Part shown: positions 1 through 44,288 of the stretch, one piece after another
How positions within the stretch are numbered: the first letter of the stretch is position 1
Layout: each line of letters begins with the position of its first letter
From: Bacilli bacterium
GTDB taxonomy: Bacteria; Bacillota_I; Bacilli_A; RF39; UBA660
Reading direction: 5' to 3'
Assembly: GCA_038321575.1 (NCBI GenBank)
Contig: JBBQFD010000003.1
Span: 1-44,288 of the forward strand
Length of the DNA: 44,288 nucleotides
The notes under the pieces: generated by a model
What the model saw: the letters and a program-made list of their open reading frames with translations, nothing else
Databases searched by the model: none
What the model was told of the DNA's origin: nothing
Position numbers and translations under genes: made by a program

Positions 1-50
1 TAACATAGAATATAGATAGCTTATATGTTATACTATTACTAGGTGATAAT

Positions 51-3181: not shown

Positions 3182-4049
3182 AAAAAGAATTAACGAAGAG
3201 GGTATTTTAAGAGCCATTTATAAGAAAAATCGTTTATCAAGATATCCCCAATTTCTCTTTGGTGTCTTGTTAGTAGCTCTGGCTTTTAATATTTTCACTT
3301 TACCATTAAAAATTACTTATGGTGTAAGTGGTATTTCCGTTATTTTATTTAATCTGTTTCATATTGATCCATCAATCGTTATTCTGATTGGATCTGGATT
3401 ATTACTAATCGCGAGTTACTTCTTTTTAGGTAAAGAAAAAACTCGTAATACCATGATTGGATCAATATTATTCCCGATTTTTGTTAAATTAACAGTTGGG
3501 GTTCCAGCCATGTTAGCTATCAATATGAATGATACCTTATTAATGACAATATATGGTGCCGTTATAACTGGATTTGGTGCTGGCTTAATCTTTAAAGCTG
3601 GTTTTACAACCGGTGGTACTGACATCTTAAATCAAATTGTTGCAAAATACTTTAAGATGTCGATGGGTAGCGCAATGATCTTTACCGATGGCTTCATTGT
3701 GTTAGCTGGTGCGTTTATATTTGGCCCAACGGCAGCGATGTACTCACTCATTTCATTATATATAATTGGTGTTATGACGGATAAAGTTATCTTAGGTATA
3801 TCGCAATCAAAAGTATTTTATATTATTACTGACCATGAAACTGATGTTAAACGTTTTATTTTAGATTATTTAAGTCATGGTGTTACTATTTTAGAAGGTA
3901 GTGGTGGATTCACAGGTAATCGTCAAAAAGTTATTATGTGTATTATTCCAACAAAAGAATATTTTATTGCTAAAGAAGGAATCGAAAGTATCGATCCTGA
4001 TGCTTTCTTCGTTGTTGCAGATGCTTATGAAGTATCTGGCGGCGCATAA
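3168..4049 (+). CDS. YitT family membrane protein (DUF2179 C-terminal domain)
   Basis: Multiple TM segments; motifs TTGGTDI, HGVTILEGSGGFTG and IDPDAF. Confidence 0.9.
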   Translation: MNLFKKRINEEGILRAIYKKNRLSRYPQFLFGVLLVALAFNIFTLPLKITYGVSGISVILFNLFHIDPSIVILIGSGLLLIASYFFLGKEKTRNTMIGSILFPIFVKLTVGVPAMLAINMNDTLLMTIYGAVITGFGAGLIFKAGFTTGGTDILNQIVAKYFKMSMGSAMIFTDGFIVLAGAFIFGPTAAMYSLISLYIIGVMTDKVILGISQSKVFYIITDHETDVKRFILDYLSHGVTILEGSGGFTGNRQKVIMCIIPTKEYFIAKEGIESIDPDAFFVVADAYEVSGGA

Positions 4050-6537: not shown

Positions 6538-9409
6538 AATTATTAACAATAATCGTTCGGTCGATAGTTCCAACATAACTACCACGAGTTACCGTGTAAG
6601 TTTCCGTATAGGTACCAGGATTAGCAGTATTAATGGTATCAGTTGTTGGAGCAGCACCTTTTTTAAATGATCGAGTAATTACTACTGATGATGAATCGGT
6701 TATATCAACAGTATTTTCCATAACGGTTATATTTTGTTCTTCATAGGCAGCATTTTTATTTAAGATAATAGGTGCAACACCACCATTTAACGTAAGGGTT
6801 ATATTATTAACGACCAAACTAACACTAGCAGTTACTTCAGTACCAGAACTTTCACTAGCGGTAAAGACATTAAATGTTGATTTTACTACGTAAGTAACAC
6901 TACTTGAATCAGTTACAATATTATCATAACTAGTTGTTTTAGTAAAACCAAGAAGGGTTAATGAATTATCGTTATTTTTAATATATATATTATACCCTAG
7001 ATCACCAATATTATTACTATTATAAGCTATTCTAGCGTTATAAGCATTAGTACGATAACCTTCGTTTGTATATAAAGAATTAAAATAAGTATTTAAACTA
7101 GTTGGATCATACGCTTTTGGTAGTGCAATAGCATTCCAAGTAAGTTTAACATTATTACCAGTTACACTACTAGCTAAACCAGTAACGCTACTTAAGTTAT
7201 TAAAGCGATCAGAAACTTCTGTTGGTTCAGTTCCTTTTTTGAATAATTCAGTTATTAATAAATCACTTGGTGTGTTAGCACTTGGTAACATTGCGGGGTA
7301 AGTTTCTTTTTCAATTTGAACACTTACTACACCGGCTGGTTTAACAAATGCTGAGCCACTTTTAAATACTCCTTGGGCAATTTTTTTGAATAATTTAACG
7401 TGAGCTCCTGAGGTGGTAAGTGTTACATATTCAGAACTTATTTTTTCATACCCATACCAAAGTGATATTGAATAATCAGTTGAAGACCCATCAACCCATA
7501 GATCATTAATAGCACTTGCCGGCATTTTATAGGCTTTCATAATTTCATTTGAAAAGTTAGTTGTCCCTGTTTTAATACCAAATTTTCCACCATTCATGGT
7601 TGATGAACCCATTACATATTCAGCTGTTGTTTGTGATATATCATTAATCATATAAGCTGTTTCAGGGCTCATTACTGATGTTTTTTTAGTTTTATTATCG
7701 AAAACATCACCAGTTTCACGATAAACAATTTTTGTGAAACTATATGGTTTAACATAATATCCACCATTAGCAAACGCTGCATAAGCAGCAGACATAGTTA
7801 ATGGTGATTCACCATTATATCCACCAATGGCATGAGCTTCATGAATAACCCCGCCACTAATTTCAGGACTTAAACCTAAACTAGTTACAAAAGTTTTAAT
7901 TTGATTATTATTATTAGCTTTAAAAGCTTTTAAAGCGGGTATATTACGTGATCTAGATAATGCAAAGCGTAATGTTAAGAAACCCATAAACCTATCATCC
8001 CAGTTCTTAATATTGCCCCCACCGGTATAACCATAAGGTTCATCAATAAATGGTTCATAAGTAGATGCATTTTTAAATTCAATTAAAGGGCCGTAATCAT
8101 AAATTGGTTTAGCAGTTGAACCGATTTGTCGTTTTATCATCGTTGCCGTATTAAATCCTCTTTGAACACGATTACGACCAGCACCGATTGCTATGATAGC
8201 TCCAGTTTTAACATCAAGGATGGAAACACCAGCTGTAATTAATGGGTTTTCCCATTTATATGTTTTTCCTGTCATAATGTCATTAACATATTCTTGTTTA
8301 GCGCGATCCATTGTCGTATAAATTTGCATTGATACTAAATAAGGATCTTTTCCAGTTGTTTCAATTACATCTTCAATTACAGTATCAATGAAATCTTGAT
8401 AACTATTATTTGCAACGCTAGCTTTAGCTAATAAATCAGCAATTGCAATTGCATTAGCGGCTTTTCTTTCTGCTGTTGTTATATAGCCATGTAATTCCAT
8501 TAAGTATAAAACTTGACTACGTCGTTTAGTGGTTTCTTCTGGATATTTATATGGATCATAAGCGTTAGGCGCTTGGAATAAACCAGCAATCATAGCTGCT
8601 TCAGATAGATTAATATCTTTAGCACTCTTACCGAAATAAGTTTGACATGCTTGTTCAACCCCATATGCACCACTACCTAAATATGGTTGGTTAACATAGA
8701 ATTCAAGAATTTCTTTTTTCGTATATTTTCTTTCAATTTGGAACACTGATATATAAATATCAGTAAACTTACGTTTTATTCCTTCAAACCCACTAGCAAC
8801 AGATGAAGTATAACTGTTTTTTGATACTTGCATCGTTATAGTTGAAGCACCACCAGCATCTTTACCCAATAATTGTCCGAAGGTTGCTTTCACAAAACGA
8901 GGTAAATCAAACCCATTATGTTGAAAGAAACGTGAATCTTCAGTTGCTATAATTGAGTTAATTAATACTTCAGGCATTTGATCATAAGTTATTTTCTCTC
9001 TTTTTTCTAAACCTAATTTAGCATAGATATTGCCATCTTTATCATATAAGATTGATGACTCATTACGATTTAAATTAGCAGGATCGAATTTAGGAGATGT
9101 TCCCACTATATAAGCAATAAAAGCTCCAATTGCAATCAAGCCCATAATAATTAACATAAAAATAGCGGTTACAACTCTTTTTATAATTCTTTTTCTGCGG
9201 CTCTTAGTCATCTTATGCGTCATAAAATAATTAACCACTAAAGCAAGTACATCTAAAATACCTGTAAATAAGATTGCTCTTACAATTCCCACTTGAAAAT
9301 ATAAGATAACAAAAACTAATAAACTACCTAAAATAAGACCAGTTTTAAACTTATCTTTTAATACTATCTTTTTTATTTGTTTAATATAATGATTAATTTT
9401 TTTCTTCAT
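6536..9409 (-). CDS. ponA: Class A penicillin-binding protein (PBP1A) with C-terminal beta-rich (FN3/Ig-like) domains
   Basis: Transglycosylase motifs EDSRFFQHNG and GASTITMQ; transpeptidase motifs STAK, SRN and KTGT; lies downstream of recU. Confidence 0.93.
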   Translation of the reverse strand: MKKKINHYIKQIKKIVLKDKFKTGLILGSLLVFVILYFQVGIVRAILFTGILDVLALVVNYFMTHKMTKSRRKRIIKRVVTAIFMLIIMGLIAIGAFIAYIVGTSPKFDPANLNRNESSILYDKDGNIYAKLGLEKREKITYDQMPEVLINSIIATEDSRFFQHNGFDLPRFVKATFGQLLGKDAGGASTITMQVSKNSYTSSVASGFEGIKRKFTDIYISVFQIERKYTKKEILEFYVNQPYLGSGAYGVEQACQTYFGKSAKDINLSEAAMIAGLFQAPNAYDPYKYPEETTKRRSQVLYLMELHGYITTAERKAANAIAIADLLAKASVANNSYQDFIDTVIEDVIETTGKDPYLVSMQIYTTMDRAKQEYVNDIMTGKTYKWENPLITAGVSILDVKTGAIIAIGAGRNRVQRGFNTATMIKRQIGSTAKPIYDYGPLIEFKNASTYEPFIDEPYGYTGGGNIKNWDDRFMGFLTLRFALSRSRNIPALKAFKANNNNQIKTFVTSLGLSPEISGGVIHEAHAIGGYNGESPLTMSAAYAAFANGGYYVKPYSFTKIVYRETGDVFDNKTKKTSVMSPETAYMINDISQTTAEYVMGSSTMNGGKFGIKTGTTNFSNEIMKAYKMPASAINDLWVDGSSTDYSISLWYGYEKISSEYVTLTTSGAHVKLFKKIAQGVFKSGSAFVKPAGVVSVQIEKETYPAMLPSANTPSDLLITELFKKGTEPTEVSDRFNNLSSVTGLASSVTGNNVKLTWNAIALPKAYDPTSLNTYFNSLYTNEGYRTNAYNARIAYNSNNIGDLGYNIYIKNNDNSLTLLGFTKTTSYDNIVTDSSSVTYVVKSTFNVFTASESSGTEVTASVSLVVNNITLTLNGGVAPIILNKNAAYEEQNITVMENTVDITDSSSVVITRSFKKGAAPTTDTINTANPGTYTETYTVTRGSYVGTIDRTIIVNN

Positions 9410-10768: not shown

Positions 10769-11686
10769 ATGAAAGAACAACTAAGTATTTCAGATAAACA
10801 AAAATTTGGAACTGAGATTGAATATGTCGATGTATATAAGTATGTTGTTGACAAAGAAATATCAAGACAAATTGCAACTAACAATCTATCAGTTAGAATT
10901 ATTAAAGGGTCAGATAGTTATAAGGAGTGGTCTAGAACACCAGACCCTTCCGTTATTAGTTTTAAAGGCGATCATTATAGTGGTGAGGTTGTATCCCCAA
11001 TTCTTCAAAATAAAGTTCAAGACTTAAAAGAATTAAAAACCATCTGCCATGTTTTGAAAAGACTTGGTGCTAATGTTAATGGTACCTGTGGTGCCCATAT
11101 TCATTTTGATGCCGCGTTTTTAGAAGATAACACTATTTATATTCAAAATCTTATCTTATTATATATGTGTTATGAAGATATCTTATATCGTTTTGCAGCT
11201 GGTGAACAATTAACTATGCGTCCAGGATTTCATAAGTATGCAGCTACTTTAAATAGTAGTATTGATTTGAAGACTTTAGAACGATATCTTTATGAAGAAC
11301 AACCATTTGATGAATTCTGTGATAACTTCATTAAAAATCGTCCCCTAAAATGTGATGGTCTATGTGACGGCTTATATTTAAGACGCCTTGATCACTCATT
11401 AGGTAATAACATTAACACTATTGAATTTAGAATTCCTAACGGGACATTAAATTATGATGTCTGGTTTAATAATATTAATACTTTCGGGTTAATGATGGAA
11501 TTTGCTAAAAAAATGGGTTTTGGACACCGTGATGATTTATATTGCAAAATCGTTAAACAAAAGAACGAACCATTTAATTATGAAAAAGAAGATTTAATCC
11601 GTGCTAAAGAATTTATTCAACTAATTTCTAAAAATAAGAGTGATGAAACACGCTTTATTAAACAATACCAAAAAGTAATAGAATAG
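10769..11686 (+). CDS. Putative amidoligase (Amidoligase_2 / COOH-NH2 ligase family)
   Basis: FGTEIE, DPSV, EVVSPIL, CGAHIH and TIEFRIPNGT motifs. Start placed at ATG 10769 after AGGTGA. Confidence 0.85.
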   Translation: MKEQLSISDKQKFGTEIEYVDVYKYVVDKEISRQIATNNLSVRIIKGSDSYKEWSRTPDPSVISFKGDHYSGEVVSPILQNKVQDLKELKTICHVLKRLGANVNGTCGAHIHFDAAFLEDNTIYIQNLILLYMCYEDILYRFAAGEQLTMRPGFHKYAATLNSSIDLKTLERYLYEEQPFDEFCDNFIKNRPLKCDGLCDGLYLRRLDHSLGNNINTIEFRIPNGTLNYDVWFNNINTFGLMMEFAKKMGFGHRDDLYCKIVKQKNEPFNYEKEDLIRAKEFIQLISKNKSDETRFIKQYQKVIE

Positions 11687-14683: not shown

Positions 14684-15331
14684 ATGGTTGATAAAGTAAT
14701 AAAACTATTAAAAGATAACGCGGTTATGATCCCACGCCATTTAATAATGAATTATCGTAACCTTAAAATAACTGATTTAGAATTAGTAATTTTAATCTAT
14801 CTTATTAATGATGATAACAAAGGTTATAATCCTAAAAAAATAAGTATGGACCTTAATATTGATTTAAATGATGTTTTAGAAAGTATTAATAGCTTAACTA
14901 GTAAAGACATTTTAACTTTAGAAGTTCGTAAAGTAGGAACCATTCGTGAAGAGTTCTTATCATTAGATAACCTATATAATAAATTAGCGTTTATCATTGT
15001 TAATGATCAACCTAATAATGATTTAACCAAGAGTAATTTATTTGATGTTTTTGAAAAAGAATTTGGTCGTACCTTATCACCCATTGAATATGAATTAATC
15101 AATGGCTGGCAAGATGGTAAATTTAGTGAAGAACTAATTGGTTTAGCACTAAAAGAAGCGGTCTTTAACGGGGTCTTTAATCTTCGTTATATCGATAAGA
15201 TTCTTTATGAATGGGAGAAAAAAGGCATTAAAAATAAAGATGACCTTGAAAAAGAACGTACTAATTTCAAGAATAAGAAAATAGATAAAAAAGAACTATT
15301 TGATTATGATTGGTTAAATGAAAAAGAATAA
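14684..15331 (+). CDS. dnaD: Primosomal protein DnaD
   Basis: N-terminal winged helix; FEKEFGRTLSPIEYE, ALKEAV and YIDKILYEW motifs. Confidence 0.93.
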   Translation: MVDKVIKLLKDNAVMIPRHLIMNYRNLKITDLELVILIYLINDDNKGYNPKKISMDLNIDLNDVLESINSLTSKDILTLEVRKVGTIREEFLSLDNLYNKLAFIIVNDQPNNDLTKSNLFDVFEKEFGRTLSPIEYELINGWQDGKFSEELIGLALKEAVFNGVFNLRYIDKILYEWEKKGIKNKDDLEKERTNFKNKKIDKKELFDYDWLNEKE

Positions 15332-28362: not shown

Positions 28363-28390
28363 TTGACAAACATTCATATTAGTATATAAT
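28363..28390 (+). promoter_or_regulatory. Sigma-A-like promoter with 16-bp spacer
   Basis: TTGACA(28363-68)-16 nt-TATAAT(28385-90). Confidence 0.75.
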
Positions 28391-28420
28391 ATAAACATCT
28401 TATTAAAAAGGGGAACAATT

Positions 28421-28960
28421 ATGGGATATGAATTAATAAATGAAGGCCGCAAATTTTATAAAATATCATCAGCATATATTGCTCGTTTCTTATCTGAAAA
28501 AACTTATCGTTTTGAAGAAAGATTTTTATATAGCAAAAGACGTAATAGTGCCTTACGTAAAAGTGATGATTTCAAGCTTTATTATGGGTTACCAGAATAT
28601 ATGCTTTTTGAAGAAGTAAATGGTGAATTAGTTGAATTCTTAACTAAGAATCCTATTTTACCAGAATCACAAAGAAATGAATGTGAAGGACTATATTATA
28701 TTGAACAACTAGATCATAGAGCTCATAAAACCTTACCAATTGTTATACCTCTTTATACAAATGAAGAAGTTAATAGTTGTTATGCTGGTTTTAATGATGA
28801 TGAATTGATGGAAATATCTAAATTATATGATGATTTTCACAATAAAAGTAAAGATGCTAAAACGCGTTATTTAGGTATTCAATCAGGTAAAATTAAAAGA
28901 ATTACTTTTAAAAATCCTTATTTCTCATCAACTAAAAGAAACGCTACCAGATTCAAATAA
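28421..28960 (+). CDS. Hypothetical protein (ORFan), monocistronic
   Basis: 179-aa ORF with SD AAGGGG, its own promoter and terminator; no recognised motif. Confidence 0.8.
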   Translation: MGYELINEGRKFYKISSAYIARFLSEKTYRFEERFLYSKRRNSALRKSDDFKLYYGLPEYMLFEEVNGELVEFLTKNPILPESQRNECEGLYYIEQLDHRAHKTLPIVIPLYTNEEVNSCYAGFNDDELMEISKLYDDFHNKSKDAKTRYLGIQSGKIKRITFKNPYFSSTKRNATRFK

Positions 28961-28974
28961 TGAATCTGGTTTTT
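28946..28974 (+). terminator. Intrinsic terminator straddling the 28960 stop
   Basis: ACCAGATTCA-AATAA-TGAATCTGGT plus T tract. Confidence 0.8.
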
Positions 28975-29028
28975 CTTTGGCATAAAATTCATATAGATGA
29001 TATAATTATATTGGAATGGATGGTTTTT

Positions 29029-29385
29029 ATGACTAAAAAAACAAGCCTTATGATTTTAGGAATAATCGCTTTATTATTAATCGTCTTAACCTTCAGTTAT
29101 CAACCCAAAGATTTATTCTATGGTTTAAAACCAAAAGTGACTTTTGGTGAATATAAAATATATGATATTGTTGAACAACGTAATTTAGCTTGTGCTGAAA
29201 TGATTGAGATTCTTGATAGTGATGAGATATATGAATACTATTTTAACTGTCTAAGAAGTGATCAAATCTATTTTGTCAGTGAAACAGAAATTATAAAAGT
29301 TAAAACCTTCTATAAAGCGGGGCTTATAACTAAAGAACAATTATATGAATTAAAGATTATTGATAGAATGTTAAAAGTAAATTAG
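29029..29385 (+). CDS. Small membrane-anchored/secreted hypothetical protein with a Cys pair
   Basis: MTKK followed by a hydrophobic helix; ACAEMIE...YYFNC. Start placed after TGATATAAT (28998). Confidence 0.7.
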   Translation: MTKKTSLMILGIIALLLIVLTFSYQPKDLFYGLKPKVTFGEYKIYDIVEQRNLACAEMIEILDSDEIYEYYFNCLRSDQIYFVSETEIIKVKTFYKAGLITKEQLYELKIIDRMLKVN

Positions 29386-32230: not shown

Positions 32231-32521
32231 TTGACGGAGCTATCAATATTAAAAAATCACCATCGTGAGTTATCTCATATTATGGAAGGTTATTTAAATA
32301 ATAATGAACAAGTTAAAGAAGCAATAAAGATTTATCAAGAATGTCGTATTGCGACTGATAATAGTGTTAGATGTAAATTAATTCAATTAGCAGAGTCTTA
32401 TATTGGAAAAGATCCCGAAGCTCGTCAAGCTTTAAAATGCTATAATCATATTATCTTTCTTGAAGAGAGAATTATGAGTCTACAAACTATAGAAAGTGAA
32501 GAATTAGTATGCACAAAGTAA
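32231..32521 (+). CDS. Hypothetical helical protein, overlapping the CDF gene start
   Basis: TGTTATATT extended -10 at 32200, SD GAGGAG, in-frame TTG at 32231. Confidence 0.65.
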   Translation: MTELSILKNHHRELSHIMEGYLNNNEQVKEAIKIYQECRIATDNSVRCKLIQLAESYIGKDPEARQALKCYNHIIFLEERIMSLQTIESEELVCTK

Positions 32522-33360
32522 CCAGAGTTATGGTCATAGTTTTACTTACTAATATGATTTTATCAATAATGCAAGTTATTGTTGGATTAATTGGTAGATC
32601 AAGTGCGGTTATTGCGGATGGGGTTCATACCTTAAGTGATATGACCACTGATGTTGTAGCTATTTTTGGTATAAGATTTTCTAATAAACGTGCTAATAAA
32701 GCCCACCCTTATGGATATGGGCAAGTTGAATATATAACTAGTATCTTTATTGGGGTCGTAGTTGTTATTGTTGGTTTATTCTTAATCAATAGTACCATGA
32801 ATAACGCCACCATGGTTCCTAGTATTTATGTTGTTATAGTAACCATCATTACGATTATTACTAAATATATATTATCTAATTATGTATTAGTTAAAGGTTA
32901 TCGTTGGGATAACTCAATCTTAATTGCTAGTGGTCGTGAAAGTCATGCTGATGTTATTAGTTCAATCTTTGTTCTAACATCATCATTACTAGCACAATTA
33001 ACCCGCTATAGTAATATGTTTATTTATTCTGATCGTGTTGCTGCTATTTTAGTAAGTATTTTCATTATTAGAGTTGGTTTTAAAATTGTTAGTGAAAACA
33101 TCAGTGTTATTATTGGTGAACAAGAAACGAATCAAGGTTTTCTTGATGAAGTTAAAGAAATAATCTTAAAAGAAAATAAAATTGAACATATCGATAATAT
33201 TGTTGCTTTAAAGTTTGGACCATACTACAAATTAAATTTAGAAGTCAAAATGGATGGTCATCTTACTTTAAAGGATGTTAATAAAGTTATGCTTAGAATT
33301 AAAAAACAATTAAAAAAAGATAAGAAAATAAGATATATAACGATTCAGGTTAATAATTAA
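32509..33360 (+). CDS. Cation diffusion facilitator (FieF-like) transporter, copy 1
   Basis: SSAVIADGVHTLSD and HPYGYGQVEY motifs, multiple TM helices and a C-terminal dimerisation domain. Confidence 0.92.
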   Translation: MHKVTRVMVIVLLTNMILSIMQVIVGLIGRSSAVIADGVHTLSDMTTDVVAIFGIRFSNKRANKAHPYGYGQVEYITSIFIGVVVVIVGLFLINSTMNNATMVPSIYVVIVTIITIITKYILSNYVLVKGYRWDNSILIASGRESHADVISSIFVLTSSLLAQLTRYSNMFIYSDRVAAILVSIFIIRVGFKIVSENISVIIGEQETNQGFLDEVKEIILKENKIEHIDNIVALKFGPYYKLNLEVKMDGHLTLKDVNKVMLRIKKQLKKDKKIRYITIQVNN

Positions 33361-33369
33361 AGGAGTCAT

Positions 33370-34230
33370 ATGAATAAAGTTACAAAAGTTATGTCAGTTA
33401 GTTTTGTGTCTAATGTATCGCTATCCCTTTTAAAAGTCATTATTGGAACTATTGGTCACTCAACAGCGATTGTCGCTGATGGTGCCCATTCTTTTAGTGA
33501 TCTTTTAACCGACCTAGTAGCAATTATTGGTAATAAAATGTCTTTAAAGCCAGCTGATAAGGAACACCCTTATGGCCATGGTCAATTAGAATATCTAACC
33601 TCACTAGCAATTGGAACAGCTGTCCTTTTTATTGCTTTCACTATTATTACAAGTGCTGTTTTTAAAACATCAGTTATTCCTAGTTCATTTGTTATGTGGG
33701 TAAGTTTATTTACCATTATTACTAAATACATCCTTGCTAAATATATTTCTATTCGAGGTATTGAATATAACAATGCCATTTTAAAGGCTAGTGGTCGTGA
33801 AAGCATGGGCGATGTTATTAGTTCAATCTTCGTCCTTATATCAGCCGTTATGATGCAATTAACCCATTATGTTAGTTGGTTTATCTATGCTGATGCGATT
33901 ACTACTATTATTGTTGGTCTATTTATCTTTAGAATTGGTTTCTTAATCATAAAAGATAATATTAGTACCATTATTGAAGAACGAGAATTAGATCCTATCC
34001 TTAATCAACAAGTTACTAATATTATCTTAAATAATTCTAATGTTAAAAAGATTGATAGTTTAATCATAATTAAATCAGGTCCATACTACAAACTAATGAT
34101 TGAATTACAAATGAGTGGTAATGGTACTTTAAATCATATTCATAAGAATATTGATTTAATTGAAAAAAATCTAAAAAAAGCTAATCGTAAATACAAATAT
34201 ATAATGATTCACGTTAGTCCAGCAGAATAG
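33370..34230 (+). CDS. Cation diffusion facilitator (FieF-like) transporter, copy 2
   Basis: STAIVADGAHSFSD, HPYGHGQLEY and IMIHVSP motifs. Confidence 0.93.
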   Translation: MNKVTKVMSVSFVSNVSLSLLKVIIGTIGHSTAIVADGAHSFSDLLTDLVAIIGNKMSLKPADKEHPYGHGQLEYLTSLAIGTAVLFIAFTIITSAVFKTSVIPSSFVMWVSLFTIITKYILAKYISIRGIEYNNAILKASGRESMGDVISSIFVLISAVMMQLTHYVSWFIYADAITTIIVGLFIFRIGFLIIKDNISTIIEERELDPILNQQVTNIILNNSNVKKIDSLIIIKSGPYYKLMIELQMSGNGTLNHIHKNIDLIEKNLKKANRKYKYIMIHVSPAE

Positions 34231-34289
34231 AGGAGGCCATTAAAAAGGCCGCACGTTTAATTGTAGCTTTAATAGTAAGTGATCCCATT

Positions 34290-34487
34290 ATGAGCACCAT
34301 TTGTGATGCTAAACTTAATAGGGTCTGCCCTCGTAACTTTGATAATTATGCTCTCCCTGATCGTAATTTTAATCGTGCTACCAGGAAAGACTTATTACCA
34401 TATCTAATAAAACAATCTACTTACTATAAAGAACAAATGGGGACTATTTATAAACCAGGTCTCATGAAAACTTTAAAACATAAATAA
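34290..34487 (+). CDS. Small hypothetical protein or 5'-truncated remnant
   Basis: 65-aa ORF whose frame is open back to 34218; stop lies directly before the next promoter. Confidence 0.45.
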   Translation: MSTICDAKLNRVCPRNFDNYALPDRNFNRATRKDLLPYLIKQSTYYKEQMGTIYKPGLMKTLKHK

Positions 34488-34489
34488 AA

Positions 34490-34517
34490 TTGACTTATCT
34501 ACTTTTTTAGATATAAT
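34490..34517 (+). promoter_or_regulatory. Sigma-A-like promoter with 16-bp spacer
   Basis: TTGACT(34490-95)-16 nt-TATAAT(34512-17). Confidence 0.75.
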
Positions 34518-34535
34518 ATTGGTGAAAGAGGATTT

Positions 34536-35150
34536 ATGAAAAAAAGTAAATATATTGTTAAAACAACCAAGCACAAACTATTATCTAATATATCACTTCA
34601 AGAAATATATGATGAAAATCATCTTTTAGTTATTCCTGAAGAAGATATAGAAATAGATGATGTTATCGAGCCCATTGTAGTTTCAATTTCTGCATTAGTG
34701 GTATCTGATTTAGTCCCAAATACCCCAATTGTAGTAATAAACGAGTTAGATTATTATGGTTTAAGTGGTAACAAAATGAATAATATTGACGAGGTAGATA
34801 CTTTTATGACAGCTACTCATAATACCAAACCAACACCAAAGAGCCCATCAATTAAGACTACAATATTATATTCAAAAGAGTATGATAAGCACCTAAGAGT
34901 TACTTTTATCGTTAATGCTGATAAATCAATTGACTACTTATCAGTTAGTGAAATCAATAACCCTGTAATTGCCGATTTACCATTAAATGGAGTTAGTAGT
35001 AAAGAACCATTACAATCTTTATTTGAAAAACTATTTAAAAACCAAAAAACTCCGGCTGAACTTAATGTTGATCACAATCGTGAAGCAGCAGCGGAAGCTG
35101 GTAAAGATTATGAACCATATAATGGTCACTCTAAAATATTAAAAAGATAA
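34536..35150 (+). CDS. Hypothetical protein (ORFan)
   Basis: 204 aa, SD GAGGA, own promoter. Confidence 0.8.
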   Translation: MKKSKYIVKTTKHKLLSNISLQEIYDENHLLVIPEEDIEIDDVIEPIVVSISALVVSDLVPNTPIVVINELDYYGLSGNKMNNIDEVDTFMTATHNTKPTPKSPSIKTTILYSKEYDKHLRVTFIVNADKSIDYLSVSEINNPVIADLPLNGVSSKEPLQSLFEKLFKNQKTPAELNVDHNREAAAEAGKDYEPYNGHSKILKR

Positions 35151-35154
35151 TAGC

Positions 35155-35198
35155 TAAAGACATTAGTGTTGACTAATGTCTTTATTAGTATATAATAT
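35155..35198 (+). repeat. Palindromic terminator/promoter cassette, copy 1
   Basis: TAAAGACATTAGT-GTTG-ACTAATGTCTTTA 13-bp inverted repeat containing TTGACT, followed by TATAAT; 30 nt identical to copy 2. Confidence 0.9.
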
Positions 35199-35215
35199 TT
35201 AAAAAAGAGGTTTTT

Positions 35216-35767
35216 ATGGAACAAGATTATAATGCTAAATTAAATTATTATATTAATAATAATCTTCGTAAAACGAAATTACTAGTTTATTTAAAAGAGT
35301 TAGCGCAAACTAACCCCAAGAATATTCTTTTAATTAATAGTTTTATTACTTTAATTGAAAAACGTAATGCTGATTTTTTAAAAATCAGCAATCAAGAGAA
35401 ACAAAAGATTTTAAGAGAATTAAATACTCATCATTTTGGTGATAACAACATTGTTAAACGTAGCGAAGTTTTAGTAACTAAAACTCCGGTTAGTCGAATA
35501 ACCTCAACCTTAACTTATCACGATAATGATGCGGGCACTATTTTAGATTTATCTTTTAGTGAATTTACTACACCAATTCAAATTAAGGTTAATAAGTCAC
35601 AAATTAATAAAAGAAAATTAACGCTTGATGAAGTCTACCAAAAGATTAAAAGCACTCCTAATTGGAAACAACTATTAGATGATATTTTTTATTCATCAAT
35701 TAATAGTGATCAATCAGATTATAATGCTGATGATATTAGGGAATCAGTCAAATCTTTTCAAAAATAA
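35216..35767 (+). CDS. Hypothetical protein (ORFan) flanked by direct repeats
   Basis: 183 aa, SD GAGGT. Confidence 0.8.
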   Translation: MEQDYNAKLNYYINNNLRKTKLLVYLKELAQTNPKNILLINSFITLIEKRNADFLKISNQEKQKILRELNTHHFGDNNIVKRSEVLVTKTPVSRITSTLTYHDNDAGTILDLSFSEFTTPIQIKVNKSQINKRKLTLDEVYQKIKSTPNWKQLLDDIFYSSINSDQSDYNADDIRESVKSFQK

Positions 35768-35772
35768 TATAT

Positions 35773-35816
35773 AAGACATTAGTTTATTGACTAATGTCTT
35801 TATTAGTATATAATAT
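35773..35816 (+). repeat. Palindromic terminator/promoter cassette, copy 2
   Basis: AAGACATTAGT-TTATTG-ACTAATGTCTT; 35787-35816 is identical to 35169-35198. Confidence 0.9.
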
Positions 35817-35835
35817 ATTATCAAGGAGTTGACTT

Positions 35836-36663
35836 ATGACGATAGATTTAATTACTAAAGTTGTTAAGAAACTTGATCCCCAAGGCGAACTTAATAAGTT
35901 CTTACAATCCCTATCTAAAAATGCTTTAATGGAAACCAGAGCATCTATAATTGAACATAGTATGGAAGTAAAACATTTTATCTGTGTTATGAATTATATT
36001 GGTAATACTAATCATATTATTGAATATAGTGGATTTTTAAGTGAACTTAAAAGTTCGATTACAACATCTGAATATAAACAAATGATTCAAAGTCAAAGAA
36101 AACAAGTTCTATCCATTCTCATTAAAACCGACTCGTATTTATCAATGTTATTTAATGAAGAAGTAATTGAATACTTACAACTATCTACTGCTATTTTATG
36201 TAATCTCCGCAATTCATCAATTTTAACTAATGAAGAAAGAATTGAAAAGCTTGATTTAGAAAATATCTTTTTACTTTTAAGTCGAGAAATCTGTCCTCAT
36301 CCTTTATGGATTAATTTAAATAATCCTAATGCTGCTTATGACTTCCCTGATCAAACTTGTAAATGTGCGCTATGTGGTGATGCTATAGTATCCTCTGATA
36401 TAGCTGATTTTAATTATGGGTCTCATATTGATAAAAGTGGTCGTCAAAGAGTCTATGGTGGGCCGATAATTGGTATTCCTGAGGATCTTGTTATTGCTTA
36501 TAAACGTGCTGAGGAAGAAAGAATTATTCCAATAGAATTTAATAAATTAATTCTTAAGAATAAAGATATTCCACTACATATCTTAGCTGAACAATTTATT
36601 CAAGGAAAAGAATCATTAAACTGTTCAAATGATAAACAAAAGTCTAATCGTATTAATAAGTAA
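35836..36663 (+). CDS. Hypothetical protein with a C-x-H...C-x2-C-G putative zinc finger
   Basis: ICPH-x21-CALCG; SD AAGGAG. Confidence 0.8.
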   Translation: MTIDLITKVVKKLDPQGELNKFLQSLSKNALMETRASIIEHSMEVKHFICVMNYIGNTNHIIEYSGFLSELKSSITTSEYKQMIQSQRKQVLSILIKTDSYLSMLFNEEVIEYLQLSTAILCNLRNSSILTNEERIEKLDLENIFLLLSREICPHPLWINLNNPNAAYDFPDQTCKCALCGDAIVSSDIADFNYGSHIDKSGRQRVYGGPIIGIPEDLVIAYKRAEEERIIPIEFNKLILKNKDIPLHILAEQFIQGKESLNCSNDKQKSNRINK

Positions 36664-36673
36664 GGAGAATATT

Positions 36674-37330
36674 ATGGAAGATAAAACATTATATAAAGCA
36701 ACTTGTGAACAAGAAATAACTAAGTTAAAAAAACAAATCGAAACATGCAAAAAGAATATTGATTATGATAAACATCCTTTTAATCATCCCTTAACCCAAA
36801 GATTACTTGTTCTTAAAACCGAATTAAGTAGCATGTTTATCATTAGACAAAGTTACTGTGATCATGGTTTGTTATTAACTAATGATCAAGATAAAGATTG
36901 TTTTTATCAATGCATTGAATGTGGTAAGATAATTACCGAAAAAGAAACTAATACTGAAGTTATTGATATTAAAGAATTAAAGATAAATTCATCTATTAAT
37001 ATCGCTCCGGTAATCCTTTATCTCCATGAACAATACCTAAAGACCTATAATACTAATCAAGGTTTTAAAGAATATATTATTAATAACTTTAAAAACAGGG
37101 CTATTAAAAAGATGTCTGATGACACTAAAAGATATATTGATGATATTGTTGATATCTTAATTAGTTATAATGAACCTGCTGTTGAATTAGAGAAATATTT
37201 ATTTAATAAAGAAACAATTGCTTTAGGTCTCAATAAAAACATGACTTTTGATGTTGATTCTTTTCGTGATCTTATCTATCAACAACTAGATGAATATCAT
37301 CAAGAAAAGGATATAAAACATGGAAAATAA
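36674..37330 (+). CDS. Hypothetical protein with a C-x-H...C-x2-C-G putative zinc finger
   Basis: YCDH-x15-CIECG; start at ATG 36674 after AAGGAG. Confidence 0.8.
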   Translation: MEDKTLYKATCEQEITKLKKQIETCKKNIDYDKHPFNHPLTQRLLVLKTELSSMFIIRQSYCDHGLLLTNDQDKDCFYQCIECGKIITEKETNTEVIDIKELKINSSINIAPVILYLHEQYLKTYNTNQGFKEYIINNFKNRAIKKMSDDTKRYIDDIVDILISYNEPAVELEKYLFNKETIALGLNKNMTFDVDSFRDLIYQQLDEYHQEKDIKHGK

Positions 37331-38039
37331 AGATACTTTAGATTTAAAAATAAAAGAATTAAAAGATAAACTTATTTTATCAGAAGAACGTGCTAATAAA
37401 CATGGTAAAAATCTTAGAAGTTTTCATGTTAAAGCACTTGTTTATCAACTTAATGAATTAAGTCAACTTCAAATGGCAAGACAAGCAATATGTAAGCATA
37501 ATATGATTTTAAATAATAATCTAGATTTTCCTTTCCAACACCACTGTTTAGAATGTGGTTTTACCATTTATCCTATCACTAATGCTATTCATCAATCAGA
37601 TCTTGCACTAGGAATGGAAGTTATTTTGATGAGTGATTTAATTAAGATTAATCCTGATAAATTAGTGACGATTATTACTAATGCTTATCAATCTTTTAAT
37701 GGTACTAAAAAAGAGTTTAAAGACTTTGTTTTAAATACTTATAAAAATGAAGAAGTAATAGCACCATCAGTTGATGTTATGAATATTGTTTATAATTATA
37801 TTAAGGTCTTAAGTAGATTCTCTAATCCTACTTATGAATTAAATGATTTTTTAAAAGGTAAAAAAACTATTACTTTAAGAAAACATCCAGAATTAATCAT
37901 TAGTTCTGATATTTTAAAAAAACTCATTCATCAACATATGCCTGAGGTATATGTTGATGCCCAAACTAAAGATGAGATTGATAATGAACCAAGAAGATAT
38001 CTGAAAGTTAAGGTTTTAACTAATGATAAAAACCGTTGA
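37320..38039 (+). CDS. Hypothetical protein with a C-x-H...C-x2-C-G putative zinc finger; paralog of the preceding gene
   Basis: ICKH-x15-CLECG; colinear similarity to 36674-37330. Confidence 0.8.
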   Translation: MENKDTLDLKIKELKDKLILSEERANKHGKNLRSFHVKALVYQLNELSQLQMARQAICKHNMILNNNLDFPFQHHCLECGFTIYPITNAIHQSDLALGMEVILMSDLIKINPDKLVTIITNAYQSFNGTKKEFKDFVLNTYKNEEVIAPSVDVMNIVYNYIKVLSRFSNPTYELNDFLKGKKTITLRKHPELIISSDILKKLIHQHMPEVYVDAQTKDEIDNEPRRYLKVKVLTNDKNR

Positions 38040-38139
38040 GTATTTAAAATTAGAAAAATCAAGATATATATTTATTAAGCACCAAAAAACTAGTTGGAAG
38101 AAACTAATTAAGATTTATGAACAAAATCTTGATAAATAA
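38023..38139 (+). CDS. Possible 38-aa basic small protein
   Basis: MIKTVEYLKLEKSRYIFIKHQKTSWKKLIKIYEQNLDK; AAGGT upstream; overlaps the previous stop. Confidence 0.3.
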   Translation: MIKTVEYLKLEKSRYIFIKHQKTSWKKLIKIYEQNLDK

Positions 38140-38157
38140 TTATTTATCAAGTATAAT
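38129..38157 (+). promoter_or_regulatory. serS leader promoter overlapped by a perfect 24-bp palindrome
   Basis: TTGATA-17-TATAAT; palindrome CTTGATAAATAATTATTTATCAAG at 38128-38151. Confidence 0.75.
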
Positions 38158-38169
38158 ATAATATATAAT

Positions 38170-38360
38170 AAAAATGTAGATGGAAAATAGTAATAAGTTT
38201 AATTATTTATAGAAAGTTAGTGGTTAATGGAAACTAATAATAATAACTTATGAATCTAATCCAGAATGAAGTGGGAACACCTCCGGTAATGCCGTTATGC
38301 TAATTAAGACTATTTAGGATGGTACCGCAGGAATGCTCCTATATTGATAGTCTTTTTTTT
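38170..38360 (+). ncRNA. T-box leader (Ser) upstream of serS
   Basis: Stem I arms TGGA...ATAAGTT / AACTTAT...TCCA; AGTA/GAA specifier loop with TCT (Ser) at 38255-57; AG-box AGAAAG; CCGTTA at 38292; antiterminator AGGA-TGGTACC-GCA(GGAA)TGC-TCCT. Confidence 0.9.
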
Positions 38361-40408: not shown

Positions 40409-40729
40409 ATGGAAAAAGCAAAAAGGGAAATTATAAAATTTGCTAAAGATAGGGATTGGGATCAATTCCATACTCCAGAAAACCTAGCAAAATCGATTTC
40501 AATTGAGGCAGGAGAACTTTTAGAATGCTTTCAATGGAATAGTAAATTTGATAAAGAAGAAGTTGCCGATGAGCTTGCTGATGTAGTCAATTATTGTATT
40601 TTGCTTGGTAATAAGCTAAATATTGATTTAGAAGAAATTGTGTTATCTAAAATTAAGAAAAATGAGTTAAAATATCCTATTGATAAATCAAAAGGTAAGA
40701 GTAATAAATATGACAAGTTAGGAGATTAA
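40409..40729 (+). CDS. MazG-like nucleotide pyrophosphohydrolase
   Basis: FAKDRDWDQFHTPENLAKSISIEAGELLECFQW, ELADV and KYP motifs. Confidence 0.93.
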   Translation: MEKAKREIIKFAKDRDWDQFHTPENLAKSISIEAGELLECFQWNSKFDKEEVADELADVVNYCILLGNKLNIDLEEIVLSKIKKNELKYPIDKSKGKSNKYDKLGD

Positions 40730-40730
40730 C

Positions 40731-42605
40731 ATGTTAGTATATGAAGGTATTAAAAGTAGTTTTTTATCTGATGTAATTGAAGATACAATTGTCGAAAGAA
40801 TCCTTGAAAAGTATGTTCCGATTTTTGGCAATAGTAACATATCACAAACAAGAGCATTTAAGAATTCTATGGAATATATGTATAAAGTACTTTCTGACGA
40901 TGAAATACCTGATAATTCTGGGATCGCAATCGAATTCAATATACCATCTACTTCAAAAAGAGTAGATTTTATTGTGTCTGGATTTGATCAATCTAAAAAT
41001 AGCTCAGTAATTATTATTGAATTGAAGCAATGGGACGAATGTTCTAAAGTAGATGGTAAGGACGGACTTGTTAAAACATATGTGGGTGGTAATTTCAGGG
41101 AAGTAACACATCCATCTTATCAAGCATGGTCATATGCAAGTCTAATTCAAGATTTTAATCAATCAGTACAAGAAGAAAGTATAGGATTATATCCATGTGC
41201 GTATCTTCATAACTATAAAATAACTGAAAATGATCCAATAATTGATAATATTTATCAAGAATATATAGAAGCCGCTCCTGTATTTGGTATGGGTGATGTT
41301 TTAAAACTAAGAGAATTTATTAAAAAATACGTTAAGTACGGTGATAATAAAGAACTTTTATACAAAATTGAAAATGGTAAGATTAGACCATCAAAAAGAT
41401 TACAAGATGCCTTATCGAGTATGTTAAAAGGGAATCAAGAATTTTTGATGATTGATGAACAGAAAGTTATATATGAAACCGCTATTGAATTATCATTGAA
41501 ATCATACGAAGATAACAAAAAAAGAGTATTGGTTATTAATGGCGGACCAGGGACTGGCAAGTCAGTATTGGCTATTAACTTATTAGTATATTTAACAAAT
41601 AAAAATATGGTAGTCAATTATGTTACTAAAAATGCTGCGCCGAGAAATGTTTTTTACGATAAATTAAAAGGAAATTTTAGTGCTAGTTATATTAAAAATT
41701 TATTTAAAGGGTCAGGAGTTTACACAGATGCAAAAACAAACACTTTTGATACTTTAGTGGTTGATGAAGCACATCGTTTAAATGCTAAATCTGGTATGTT
41801 TAAAAATCTAGGCGAAAACCAAGTCAAAGAAATAATAAATGCTGCCAAATGTTCAATATTCTTTTTAGATGAAAATCAAAAGGTGACCATGTCTGATATT
41901 GGTAGCGCAGATGTTATTAAAGCATATGCAAAACAAGCGAATGCTGAATTACACTTTGTTGAACTTGAATCACAATTTAGATGTAACGGATCAGATGGTT
42001 ATTTATCATGGTTAGACAATATACTAGAAATAAAAGAAACGGCCAATTATACTTTTGATTTTGATTACGATTTTAAAACCGTTGATTCTCCAGAAAAATT
42101 AAAAAATATGATTTTTGAAAAAAATAAAATTAATAATAAATCTAGATTAGTGGCTGGATATTGTTGGAATTGGATATCTGCGGGCAAAAATAACTCTGAA
42201 ATTCACGATATTGTTATACCTGAATACTCTTTTGAAATGAGTTGGAATTTAGGTAATAGTAGCACATGGGCTATTGATGAAAACTCGGTAAATGAAGTTG
42301 GATGTATCCATACTTGTCAAGGATTAGAATTTGATTATGTCGGAGTAATTATAGGTGAAGACATTAGATATGAGAATGGTCATATAATTACTGATTTTAC
42401 AAAGAGAGCAAAAACAGATAAATCTTTGTTTGGAATAGTTGCAAAATCTAGACAAAACAAAAATGAAGCTGATAAGCAGGCCGATCAAATAATAAAGAAC
42501 ACATACAGAACTTTAATGACTAGAGGAATGAAGGGGTGTTATATATATTGTGTTGATAAGAAGTTACAGGAATATTTTATTAGATCGTTGATAAAACAAA
42601 AATAA
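40731..42605 (+). CDS. DUF2075 (Schlafen group 3-like) helicase with N-terminal PD-(D/E)xK-type nuclease
   Basis: EF..P....RVD...IIELKQW nuclease pattern; Walker A GGPGTGKS; VVDEAH; HTCQGLEFDYVGV; YRTLMTRG. Confidence 0.9.
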   Translation: MLVYEGIKSSFLSDVIEDTIVERILEKYVPIFGNSNISQTRAFKNSMEYMYKVLSDDEIPDNSGIAIEFNIPSTSKRVDFIVSGFDQSKNSSVIIIELKQWDECSKVDGKDGLVKTYVGGNFREVTHPSYQAWSYASLIQDFNQSVQEESIGLYPCAYLHNYKITENDPIIDNIYQEYIEAAPVFGMGDVLKLREFIKKYVKYGDNKELLYKIENGKIRPSKRLQDALSSMLKGNQEFLMIDEQKVIYETAIELSLKSYEDNKKRVLVINGGPGTGKSVLAINLLVYLTNKNMVVNYVTKNAAPRNVFYDKLKGNFSASYIKNLFKGSGVYTDAKTNTFDTLVVDEAHRLNAKSGMFKNLGENQVKEIINAAKCSIFFLDENQKVTMSDIGSADVIKAYAKQANAELHFVELESQFRCNGSDGYLSWLDNILEIKETANYTFDFDYDFKTVDSPEKLKNMIFEKNKINNKSRLVAGYCWNWISAGKNNSEIHDIVIPEYSFEMSWNLGNSSTWAIDENSVNEVGCIHTCQGLEFDYVGVIIGEDIRYENGHIITDFTKRAKTDKSLFGIVAKSRQNKNEADKQADQIIKNTYRTLMTRGMKGCYIYCVDKKLQEYFIRSLIKQK

Positions 42606-42715
42606 AATCTATAAATTACAAAATAATATGAGTAATTATGTTAATTATTATTGCAATATCAATTGAAATTAATAATAAAATTTTTACAAATTAAAATATT
42701 TAAGGAGGTAAAGTT

Positions 42716-43036
42716 ATGGCTAGATATAGAAGATATTATAGAAAAGATCTTTCCGGTTTAATATTGTTGGTACTTATAGGGTTAATGTCGTGGTTTGCTA
42801 GTACTTTTAATCAACATCCTGTGCTAACAACAATTGTAATTGTTTCTATAGTTTCAATAACAGGGTATATAATTTATTTTTTCAAAAAAAAGAAAACTAT
42901 TAAAAACGAATTTAACAAAGGTAATGTTGGTATTTGCCCATTATGTGGTAGTCAATTAGTAGCAAAACAAGGTAAATATGGCCCATTTATTGGTTGCTCT
43001 AATTTCCCACAATGTCGATATATTCAAAATAAGTAA
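42716..43036 (+). CDS. Two-TM protein with a C-terminal topoisomerase-type C4 zinc finger
   Basis: [29 protein letters not shown]. Confidence 0.85.
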
Positions 43037-43049
43037 TAAAAGCAGTATT

Positions 43050-43078
43050 AAAAGATAGTTTAAAATCTATCTTTTTTT
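43050..43078 (+). terminator. Intrinsic terminator
   Basis: AAAAGATAG-loop-CTATCTTTT plus T tract. Confidence 0.75.
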
Positions 43079-43119
43079 CTTATTGTGATGGTATAATATT
43101 AATAGAATAAGAGGTTTTT

Positions 43120-44288
43120 ATGAGCGTAAACAATCGTAATGAATTAATTATTATAAAGGATGAAGATAAAACAAATGATGTTAGTTCAATTGTTTTTACC
43201 AGCGCCCAAAAGTATAGAGTAGTTTTCAACGGATCTGATCGTGCTTTTTTTTATGCTAAGAACAGTATAAAATTATTTAATAACCCAATATGCTTATCTT
43301 CAAGTGATGTGATTATAAAATATATTGATAAAGAGATTGATAACATTGATTCTATTTTAATTTTTAACAATCAATATGTAAAAATTATTTTTGTAAATAA
43401 TCTTAGTAGTTTATATTTGAAAAGAGATCTTATTATTGAAAAAAATTCATCTAAAGAAGAAAGTATTAACTGTTTTCAATACTTAAAACAATTAGCTAAA
43501 GTCGTTAGTATGGTAACTGATGATGGCAAAGTATTATTAAGTGATCAATATGAGAGAATGTCGGAGATTAACCATAAAAGTATTTTAGCAAAATACATTA
43601 CTCGTGAACGAATTAAAAAAAATAAGCTTTCTAATAATCTTATATATCCATTTGGATATAATTTAAGTCAAGGCGAAGCGGTAGAGAATGCTTTTAGTAA
43701 TGATGTTAGCATTATTGAAGGACCACCGGGAACCGGGAAAACTCAAACTATCTTAAATATTATTGCTAATGCGGTTATGCAAAACAAAACAGTAGCTGTT
43801 GTGTCTAATAATAATTCAGCAACAGCTAATGTAATTGAAAAACTAGAAAAAAGCTCTTTAGACTTTTTTGCTGCTTTTTTAGGTAGTAGAGATAACAAAG
43901 AAAAATTTATTGAACTACAGGATGAAGAATATCCTGATTTTAGTAATTGGCAAATGAATAGAGATCAGATGAATAAACTATCTGATTATTTGACTGAACA
44001 AAAAGAAGCAATTGCAAAGATGAATATAATAAGAAATAATGAAGCTAAAGCTATTCAAGAATTAAGTGATATTGAAAATGAAAATCATCATTATCATATA
44101 TACTTTAATGATCGCTCTAATAATATATTAGATATAAAAGCATTTGGTAATTTTAATGCTTCCAAAATAGAAGCATTCATTATAAAAATAGAAGAAATTC
44201 AAAGTAATAAAAAAAATATATCAATAATTGATAAAATTAAATTTTTATTTATCTACGGAATATATAATTTTAAATTATATAATAATCC
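43120..44288 (+). CDS. Superfamily 1 (Upf1/DNA2-like, AAA_11) helicase, truncated by the window edge and absent from the ORF track
   Basis: ATG 43120 after GAGGT. The frame reads PFGYNLSQGEAVENAF...IIEGPPGTGKTQTILNIIAN...VVSNNNSA, with Walker A at 43720-43743. Confidence 0.88.
   Translation, partial: MSVNNRNELIIIKDEDKTNDVSSIVFTSAQKYRVVFNGSDRAFFYAKNSIKLFNNPICLSSSDVIIKYIDKEIDNIDSILIFNNQYVKIIFVNNLSSLYLKRDLIIEKNSSKEESINCFQYLKQLAKVVSMVTDDGKVLLSDQYERMSEINHKSILAKYITRERIKKNKLSNNLIYPFGYNLSQGEAVENAFSNDVSIIEGPPGTGKTQTILNIIANAVMQNKTVAVVSNNNSATANVIEKLEKSSLDFFAAFLGSRDNKEKFIELQDEEYPDFSNWQMNRDQMNKLSDYLTEQKEAIAKMNIIRNNEAKAIQELSDIENENHHYHIYFNDRSNNILDIKAFGNFNASKIEAFIIKIEEIQSNKKNISIIDKIKFLFIYGIYNFKLYNN

Follow-up and report, generated by a model that had tools for sequence, protein, structure and literature searches.

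A duplicated hairpin–promoter unit flanking a single orphan gene in a lineage-specific island of a small low-G+C bacterium

Two non-coding units of 42-44 nt, which differ from each other only in the loop of a hairpin, bracket exactly one orphan gene in the window, that is, in the whole 44,288-nt stretch of chromosome analyzed here. It is reasonably probable that these units are duplicated promoter-coupled intrinsic terminators, one copied from the other, which insulate and drive the orphan genes around them. The design is mostly ordinary: it is common in this genome and known from the literature, and what is unusual is only its exact duplication around a single orphan gene.

The core of each unit is the 30-mer TTGACTAATGTCTTTATTAGTATATAATAT, which is present in exact form on the plus strand at 35169-35198 (copy 1) and 35787-35816 (copy 2), with a period of 618 bp. 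In copy 1, the repeat comprises a -35 element, TTGACT, at 35169-35174, a 16-nt spacer, a -10 element, TATAAT, at 35191-35196, and two further nucleotides; the corresponding elements of copy 2 lie at 35787-35792 and 35809-35814. Nothing else in the window matches it when up to three mismatches are allowed, and two matches were not obtained in any of 100 dinucleotide-preserving shuffles. Ahead of each 30-nt copy lies the arm AAGACATTAGT, the reverse complement of ACTAATGTCTT within the repeat. The resulting palindrome, AAGACATTAGT-N-ACTAATGTCTT, spans 35157-35182 with the loop GTTG and 35773-35800 with the loop TTATTG, and this pattern was matched in none of the 100 shuffles. The identical stretch begins a few bases past the upstream stop codon and ends 2 nt past the -10 element, about 5 nt short of the expected transcription start. 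Between the copies there is one open reading frame on the plus strand, 35216-35767, encoding the 183-residue protein g183 behind a ribosome-binding site, AAGAGG, at 35205-35210. The first-pass annotation had described the 30-nt identity, the single enclosed gene with its 618-bp period, and a difference confined to the loop; all of these hold, with stem and promoter intact in both copies. The observation is therefore confirmed as real and far above chance.

The first-pass annotation had also suggested a search for the unit beyond the window. Over the whole assembly (698 kb in 41 contigs, 29% G+C, 95% complete), the unit occurs twice, and the 30-mer is among the very few non-coding repeats of at least 20 nt in the genome. 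The 28-nt promoter was not found, at up to three mismatches, in 400 other genomes of the family, and a DNA search of 40 relatives with 34230-38340 as the query returned only the T-box leader of serS and short AT-rich matches. No Rfam family covering the unit was found. A pattern scan of genome contigs recovered 10 loci with the same arms, all of them terminator-like hairpins in unrelated organisms; the same scan of viral contigs gave one unrelated hairpin, and no 21-mer match was obtained there. A 2377-nt contig from a public sequencing run is colinear with 34690-37066, which indicates that the arrangement is present in a second assembly too, probably of the same sample. The locus is present in a single public run (X1), a sediment metagenome that is probably the source sample, and in no RNA run. 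Among the assembled contigs of X1, from which rare variants drop out, no junction indicating a 618-bp deletion or circle was listed. Another contig shows a loose end at 35750; judged by depth, this is probably a short AT-rich match, comparable to a 22-nt match at 37337.

Regarding the hairpins, the putative intrinsic terminator of the upstream gene g204 occupies 35155-35184 on the plus strand and has a perfect 13-bp stem. The putative terminator of g183 occupies 35773-35800 on the same strand, with a perfect stem of 11 bp (12 when a G-U pair is included). Hairpins of 11-13 bp had been proposed ahead of each copy, with the -35 element lying in the loop and the 3' arm, and both proposals agree with the sequence, the first three bases of the element (TTG) falling in the loop and the last three (ACT) in the 3' arm. 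The calculated RNA folding energies are -15.7 kcal/mol for the first hairpin and -13.9 kcal/mol for the second (z about -5 in both cases). In a survey of the 164 hairpins of the genome with a perfect stem of at least 10 bp and a loop of up to 8 nt, they have energies of -14.9 and -13.4 kcal/mol, which places them at ranks 6 and 14. Both begin 4-6 nt past the TAA stop codons of g204 and g183. An interruption breaks their T-tract (TTTATTAG), which has 5 T in 8 positions; at least six T are found in 125 of the 164 genomic hairpins. A simple terminator scan lists the unit hairpins on the minus strand only. Taken with the interrupted U-tract, this suggests that termination may be partial. In the promoter scan, TTGACT-16-TATAAT matches 11 of 12 consensus positions at both sites. 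The TATAAT elements start 6 and 8 nt beyond the stems, and a ribosome-binding site and an ATG follow 9-22 nt downstream of the repeat ends.

The same design is readily apparent elsewhere in the genome. Most of the 164 hairpins consist of an A-run, stem, loop, stem and T-run, and 88 of them start between -12 and +40 nt from the stop codon of an open reading frame of at least 100 residues, compared with 231 of 5000 random windows. As a class, these hairpins are consequently terminators. An exact TATAAT lies 0-30 nt past the hairpin, on either strand, in 53 of 164 cases versus 503 of 5000 random positions, and it is typically followed by a ribosome-binding site and a start codon. The placement of the next gene's -10 element right behind the previous terminator is thus the normal intergenic layout in this organism. 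Furthermore, TTGACN-16..18-TATAAT occurs at 27 sites genome-wide against about 4.8 expected, which indicates that such sites are real promoters in this genome; three promoter sites of the TTGACN type follow one another within the island (34490, 35169 and 35787). Compared with a typical member of the class, the two unit hairpins stand apart by their interrupted T-tract and by a full consensus -35 element inside the hairpin. Together, the anatomy and this genome-wide comparison support, at the level of prediction, the proposal that the units act as terminator-promoter cassettes.

The surrounding window is ordinary chromosome of a small low-G+C bacterium, carrying polC, polA, recU, dnaD, PBP1, RF1, RF2, argS and serS. 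Upstream of the units lie two tandem cation-efflux genes (32509-34230), and downstream lies serS, preceded by a T-box leader at 38168-38343 that scores 73 bits, the Rfam cut-off being 93. In the relative G001, polA is followed in order by a single cation-efflux gene, the T-box leader and serS, and the gap from the efflux gene to serS measures about 280 nt. Here, five orphan genes fill that gap, so that 34231-38128 (about 3.9 kb) constitutes a lineage-specific island. All five are encoded on the plus strand. The first, g204 (34536-35150, 204 residues), ends just ahead of hairpin 1, and the second is g183. Past copy 2, three tightly packed orphans extend over 35836-38039: g275 (35836-36663), g233 (36629 or 36674 to 37330) and g239 (37320-38039). 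For g233, the database form has 218 residues, which implies the later start. The proteins g233 and g239 are paralogs (E 3e-16; Smith-Waterman z 23.9), and g275, g233 and g239 each contain a Cys/His motif in which C-x-H is followed some 20 residues on by C-x2-C.

No family was found for any of the five island proteins in Pfam, PHROG or PADLOC. When g183 and g239 were used as queries against 150 genomes of the family, nothing significant was obtained, with E values of at least 3e-4 and partial alignments. Among 5.8 billion proteins, g183 and a g233/g239 profile matched only themselves; the g183 cluster has one member, and g204, g275 and g239 are likewise singleton clusters. An exhaustive phmmer search with g183 gave one weak relative, P0002 (E 7.6e-5, 28-29% identity). 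It is encoded on an unrelated metagenome contig of 24% GC with many tandem repeats of 35-36 nt, and nothing like the unit was seen on that contig. The ESM Atlas gave no usable match. Single-sequence AlphaFold2 models reached mean pLDDT values of only 37.8 for g204 and 41.8 for g183, too poor for a fold search. Searches by tblastn returned no match in phages (g183, g239, g275 and g204) or in plasmids (g183, g275 and g204).

The proteins on either side of the units had been said to share no obvious identity, and this is the case. The best BLASTP value among them is E 1.4, and Smith-Waterman z values range from -1.6 to +1.2 for all pairs except g233/g239, with z -0.6 for g204 against g183. The idea that g204 and g183 are diverged tandem duplicates, with the units as relics of that event, was therefore rejected at the level of detectable similarity. 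The identity of the units ends near the -10 element, and the leaders, ribosome-binding sites and genes beyond it are unrelated. This indicates that a discrete regulatory module was copied, and that the units are not the relic of a gene duplication. A 65-residue open reading frame at 34290-34487 was also considered as a decayed paralog of g275, and the similarity was not significant (z 1.4).

From these features, we infer termination, promoter activity and a route of copying as follows. The hairpin right behind the stop codon of the upstream gene would end or attenuate its transcript. The same DNA would supply the -35 element through its loop and 3' arm, with the -10 element 6-8 nt past the stem, and this near-consensus sigma-70-type promoter would start transcription anew for the gene that follows. 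In this way, every orphan gene or operon of the island would be transcribed as an insulated unit from a strong promoter of its own. The identity of the two units would be explained by the copying of one from the other inside the island, be it by local recombination, by gene conversion or by the insertion of g183 together with one unit. If so, a very small AT-rich genome fits the end of one transcript and the beginning of the following one within about 45 nt, and newly arisen or newly acquired orphan genes may come with self-contained stop and start signals.

Modules of this type have been described by Fletcher, Forrest, Cooper, Adams, Kapanidis and Grainger as promoter-coupled terminators (bioRxiv 10.64898/2026.08.19.745784). 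According to that preprint, they are widespread; the stem-loop lies right before the -10 element, which sits directly behind the T-tract, and the stem-loop DNA serves as the -35 element. The modules lie between tandem genes, as here, and the palindrome may double as a transcription-factor site. Measured against the modules as presented there, the present, predicted units differ in their interrupted T-tract, in the full consensus -35 element in the loop and 3' arm, and in being exact copies of each other.

The confinement of the difference to the loop fits a constraint on the folded hairpin and the promoter, and it could also simply reflect a recent copy. The loop change amounts to one mutational event in two copies of one genome, and with such a sample selection is inseparable from recency. 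Were the copying old, promoter function alone would not explain the perfect identity of the 16-nt spacer, in which case an operator or continuing gene conversion might contribute.

A shared operator is the alternative that survives best. A transcription factor might bind the long palindrome, or the spacer repeat ACTAAT-N6-ATTAGT, and thereby co-regulate g183 and the g275-g233-g239 operon. This reading is compatible with the terminator-promoter reading rather than exclusive of it. A palindrome over the -35 element and the spacer occupies the classical position of a repressor site, and all 16 spacer positions are the same in both copies, although unit identity may simply be recent. However, the long palindrome has 4 nt between its arms in copy 1 but 6 nt in copy 2, which alters the helical phase for a dimer; a folded hairpin consequently fits better than a rigid dimeric DNA-binding protein. 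The first-pass annotation had singled out a second inverted repeat in the spacer, ACTAAT-GTCTTT-ATTAGT. It does exist, but its predicted fold, at -5.7 kcal/mol (z -1.9), is a weak one that shuffled sequences equalled in 13 of 200 cases, and its frequency is unremarkable: 6-bp inverted repeats are present in 10 of 61 promoter-like sites of the genome against 11.7% of spacer shuffles, so that a spacer repeat of this kind with fixed spacing is at chance level.

The genome contains no third such site; the evidence consists of the two units and one half-site context at 28378, within a promoter that shares ATTAGTATATAATAT exactly with the unit. Family searches with the five island proteins gave no DNA-binding family. 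A known system of identical inverted repeats at two operons of one genome is CIRCE/HrcA, where the repeat precedes the dnaK and groE operons and overlaps or adjoins their promoters. The CIRCE element, however, keeps a fixed 9-nt spacing and is found in many genera, whereas the palindrome of the unit varies its spacing and is known from one genome only. A terminator palindrome that doubles as a LexA site has been reported (bioRxiv 10.64898/2026.08.19.745784). Overall, a shared operator appears unlikely, and it gains no support from the present analysis.

A second alternative is that the identical units act as short homologies through which general recombination loops out, or once inserted, g183 together with one unit (618 bp). 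The closest analogue, by comparison of anatomy, is the promoter-early stem-loop (PeSL) cassette, which flanks ORFans in the T4-type phages RB49 and phi1 (Arbiol et al. 2010, PMC2839356). In that article, PeSL cassettes are described as composites of a strong sigma-70-like promoter and a terminator stem-loop. They reach from the stop codon of the gene upstream to the ribosome-binding site of the gene downstream and are located right before ORFans of a variable (hyperplastic) region, where two cassettes may enclose a single ORFan. Insertion, deletion and mini-circles mediated by the cassettes, with recombination and mini-circles shown experimentally, are reported there as well (PMC2839356). The present units share this anatomy, with a predicted strong sigma-70-like promoter and a stem-loop right before orphan genes of a variable region, and as direct repeats they bracket exactly one orphan gene.

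The differences from the phage cassettes are nevertheless substantial. There are two copies here, with 41 identical nucleotides (an 11-nt arm and the 30-nt repeat, the differing loop lying between) in units of 41-44 nt with an AT-rich stem, compared with about 50 cassettes per phage genome that are conserved over about 100 bp and often have stems with G/C runs (PMC2839356). A many-copy family within a T4-type phage genome is thus not what is seen: the copies number two, no phage matches were obtained, and the replicon is a bacterial chromosome with polC, polA, serS and other housekeeping genes as neighbours. Furthermore, the locus was found in no relative or second strain. Recombination through the units consequently appears doubtful, more so than a shared operator. 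Slightly more doubtful again is the specific proposal, drawn by analogy, that the units are a cellular counterpart of PeSL, i.e., linkers that would insulate and drive orphan genes and be moved as small circles by host homologous recombination.

The PeSL authors state that there was no evidence yet of such cassettes in cellular organisms and raise the question (PMC2839356). If the units were indeed recombination handles, a gene-shuffling mechanism known only from T4-type phages would be extended to a bacterial chromosome, and a route for the gain and loss of orphan genes would be provided. A looser resemblance is to the morons of phages and prophages, reportedly described by Hendrix et al. in 2000, in which a gene with its own promoter and terminator is inserted between others. 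The likeness lies in a single gene of unknown function that carries its own signals between other genes; the flanking signals of morons, however, are said neither to be identical repeats nor to confer mobility.

An origin of the unit as a short palindrome of MITE or REP type, imported or mobile, or as a terminator hairpin taken from a rolling-circle plasmid, is very improbable. The hairpin of copy 1 with its loop, 27 nt in all, recurs unchanged at the 3' end of rep (Pfam Rep_1) in pUSA01-type plasmids of Staphylococcus aureus; matches were found in 679 plasmid records, 639 of them from Staphylococcus, the best with 84.6% identity over 52 nt (E 6e-6). The identity is nevertheless limited to the hairpin, beyond which the plasmid has a simple run of T and lacks a -10 element, and a palindrome offers only some 15 independent positions, for which a chance match in hundreds of gigabases is conceivable. 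In addition, no island protein matches a plasmid, and a mobile repeat family would be expected to number more than two copies. The same 27-nt hairpin was also seen in L032 and L035, two short contigs of unrelated assemblies.

Least credible of all is an integron attC-like or similar site defining mobile single-gene cassettes. Integron attC sites are imperfect palindromes with extrahelical bases, which an adjacent IntI integrase recombines in folded single-stranded form; their cassettes usually lack promoters. The resemblance is confined to a single gene set apart by direct repeats that contain a palindrome; here, the 11-13 bp stems contain neither mismatch nor bulge, a promoter with 11 of 12 consensus positions precedes each of the downstream genes, and the copies number two. 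The 44-kb window contains no recombinase, and hence no adjacent IntI, and no tRNA gene. Within the assembly (95% complete), matches to tyrosine recombinases (Phage_integrase) fall on contigs C19 and C18/C8 only, and serine recombinases or resolvases and Y1 transposases give no match. The first-pass suggestion of a recombination site, understood as a dedicated site-specific system, is accordingly not supported.

The units were also compared with other promoters of the genome. The promoter-like sequence upstream of g204 (P0, 34490-34517, plus strand) has the form TTGACT-16-TATAAT with 11 of 12 consensus positions and is without a long palindrome. Its agreement with the unit extends to 22 of 30 positions, and to 11 of 19 when only the non-fixed ones are counted; the background among promoters of this genome with a 16-nt spacer is 8.1 ± 3.0 of 19, and P0 was accordingly rejected as a third, diverged copy. 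A more similar promoter lies at 28363-28392 (plus strand), ahead of an orphan gene at 28421-28960 whose paralogs are found in this genome only. It contains the exact 15-mer ATTAGTATATAATAT and a 16-nt spacer, and it agrees with the unit at 24 of 30 positions, including 13 of the 19 non-fixed ones, the highest value after the identical pair. Promoters of this kind are generally much alike (8.1 ± 3.0 versus 13 here), so that this similarity, a lead for the operator reading, is suggestive only. Finally, at the right edge of the island, a perfect 24-nt palindrome (38128-38151, plus strand) covers the -35 element and the spacer in the promoter of serS; arms of 11 bp inside the promoter, as seen there, arise in fewer than 0.1% of spacer shuffles.

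The promoter of serS contains a perfect 24-nt palindrome (38128-38151; halves CTTGATAAATAA and TTATTTATCAAG), which spans the -35 element and the entire spacer, with TATAAT coming immediately after. Its position is the exact right boundary of the orphan island, the lineage-specific gap of about 3.9 kb that extends from the efflux gene to serS. At the syntenic site compared in the relative's genome G001, the serS promoter is without such a palindrome. The palindrome is followed by a T-box leader 5' of serS (38168-38343; 73.3 bits, E 4e-15), which was missed by the default Rfam scan because its score falls under the gathering score of 93 for this family. This stretch is kept in relatives, and look-alikes of it are present at other places in the source genome. 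Elsewhere in the same assembly, contig C12 carries four perfect palindromes in tandem (14791-14976), each of 20-34 nt with the core TGTTTCACGTGAAACA and spaced by about 45-60 nt; judged from its sequence, this series looks like an array of operator sites.

A promoter resembling the unit, the duplicated hairpin and promoter module, is found at 28363-28392; it matches the unit at 24 of 30 positions and has one 15-mer exactly in common with it. It stands 5' of two further orphan genes, of 179 and 141 aa (28421-29385), which lie in the space separating polC from polA. Two paralogs of the 179-aa protein are encoded at the end of contig C2 of the source assembly, and no match to it was found in the 150 family genomes searched.

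Within the orphan island, the proteins g275, g233 and g239 (35836-38039) have a Cys/His pattern in common, in which C-x2-C comes about 20 residues after C-x-H, and this arrangement looks like a zinc ribbon after a helical N-terminus. Two of the three, g233 and g239, are clear paralogs; no member of the family was found outside the source genome in any collection searched.

The hairpin of the first copy of the unit, loop included, also occurs at the 3' end of rep (Rep_1) in pUSA01-type Staphylococcus aureus plasmids. Identical hairpins are located in two sequence records (L042:987-1036; L043:987-1036 and 1148-1198) and in a short contig of an unrelated assembly (L032:2001-2026); where one record holds the hairpin twice, it lies inside a longer inverted repeat. 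Short contigs with the same plasmid-like sequence occur in assemblies labelled Paracoccus and Brevundimonas, and these look like contamination of those assemblies.

The cation-efflux gene is present as a tandem duplicate at 32509-34230 (283 and 286 aa), and G001 has a single such gene at the corresponding position. The genes 3' of serS (40409-44286) encode a MazG-like protein, a Schlafen-group-3-like helicase with AbiO/Nhi-like PADLOC matches, a small protein with a zinc ribbon of topoisomerase type, and another helicase, possibly constituting a defence-type neighbourhood. The sole weak relative of g183, the 183-aa orphan protein encoded between the two units, comes from a metagenome contig of 24% G+C (L037), whose intergenic regions contain long arrays of 35-36-nt tandem repeats at 3330-3550, 8745-9195 and 10825-11430.
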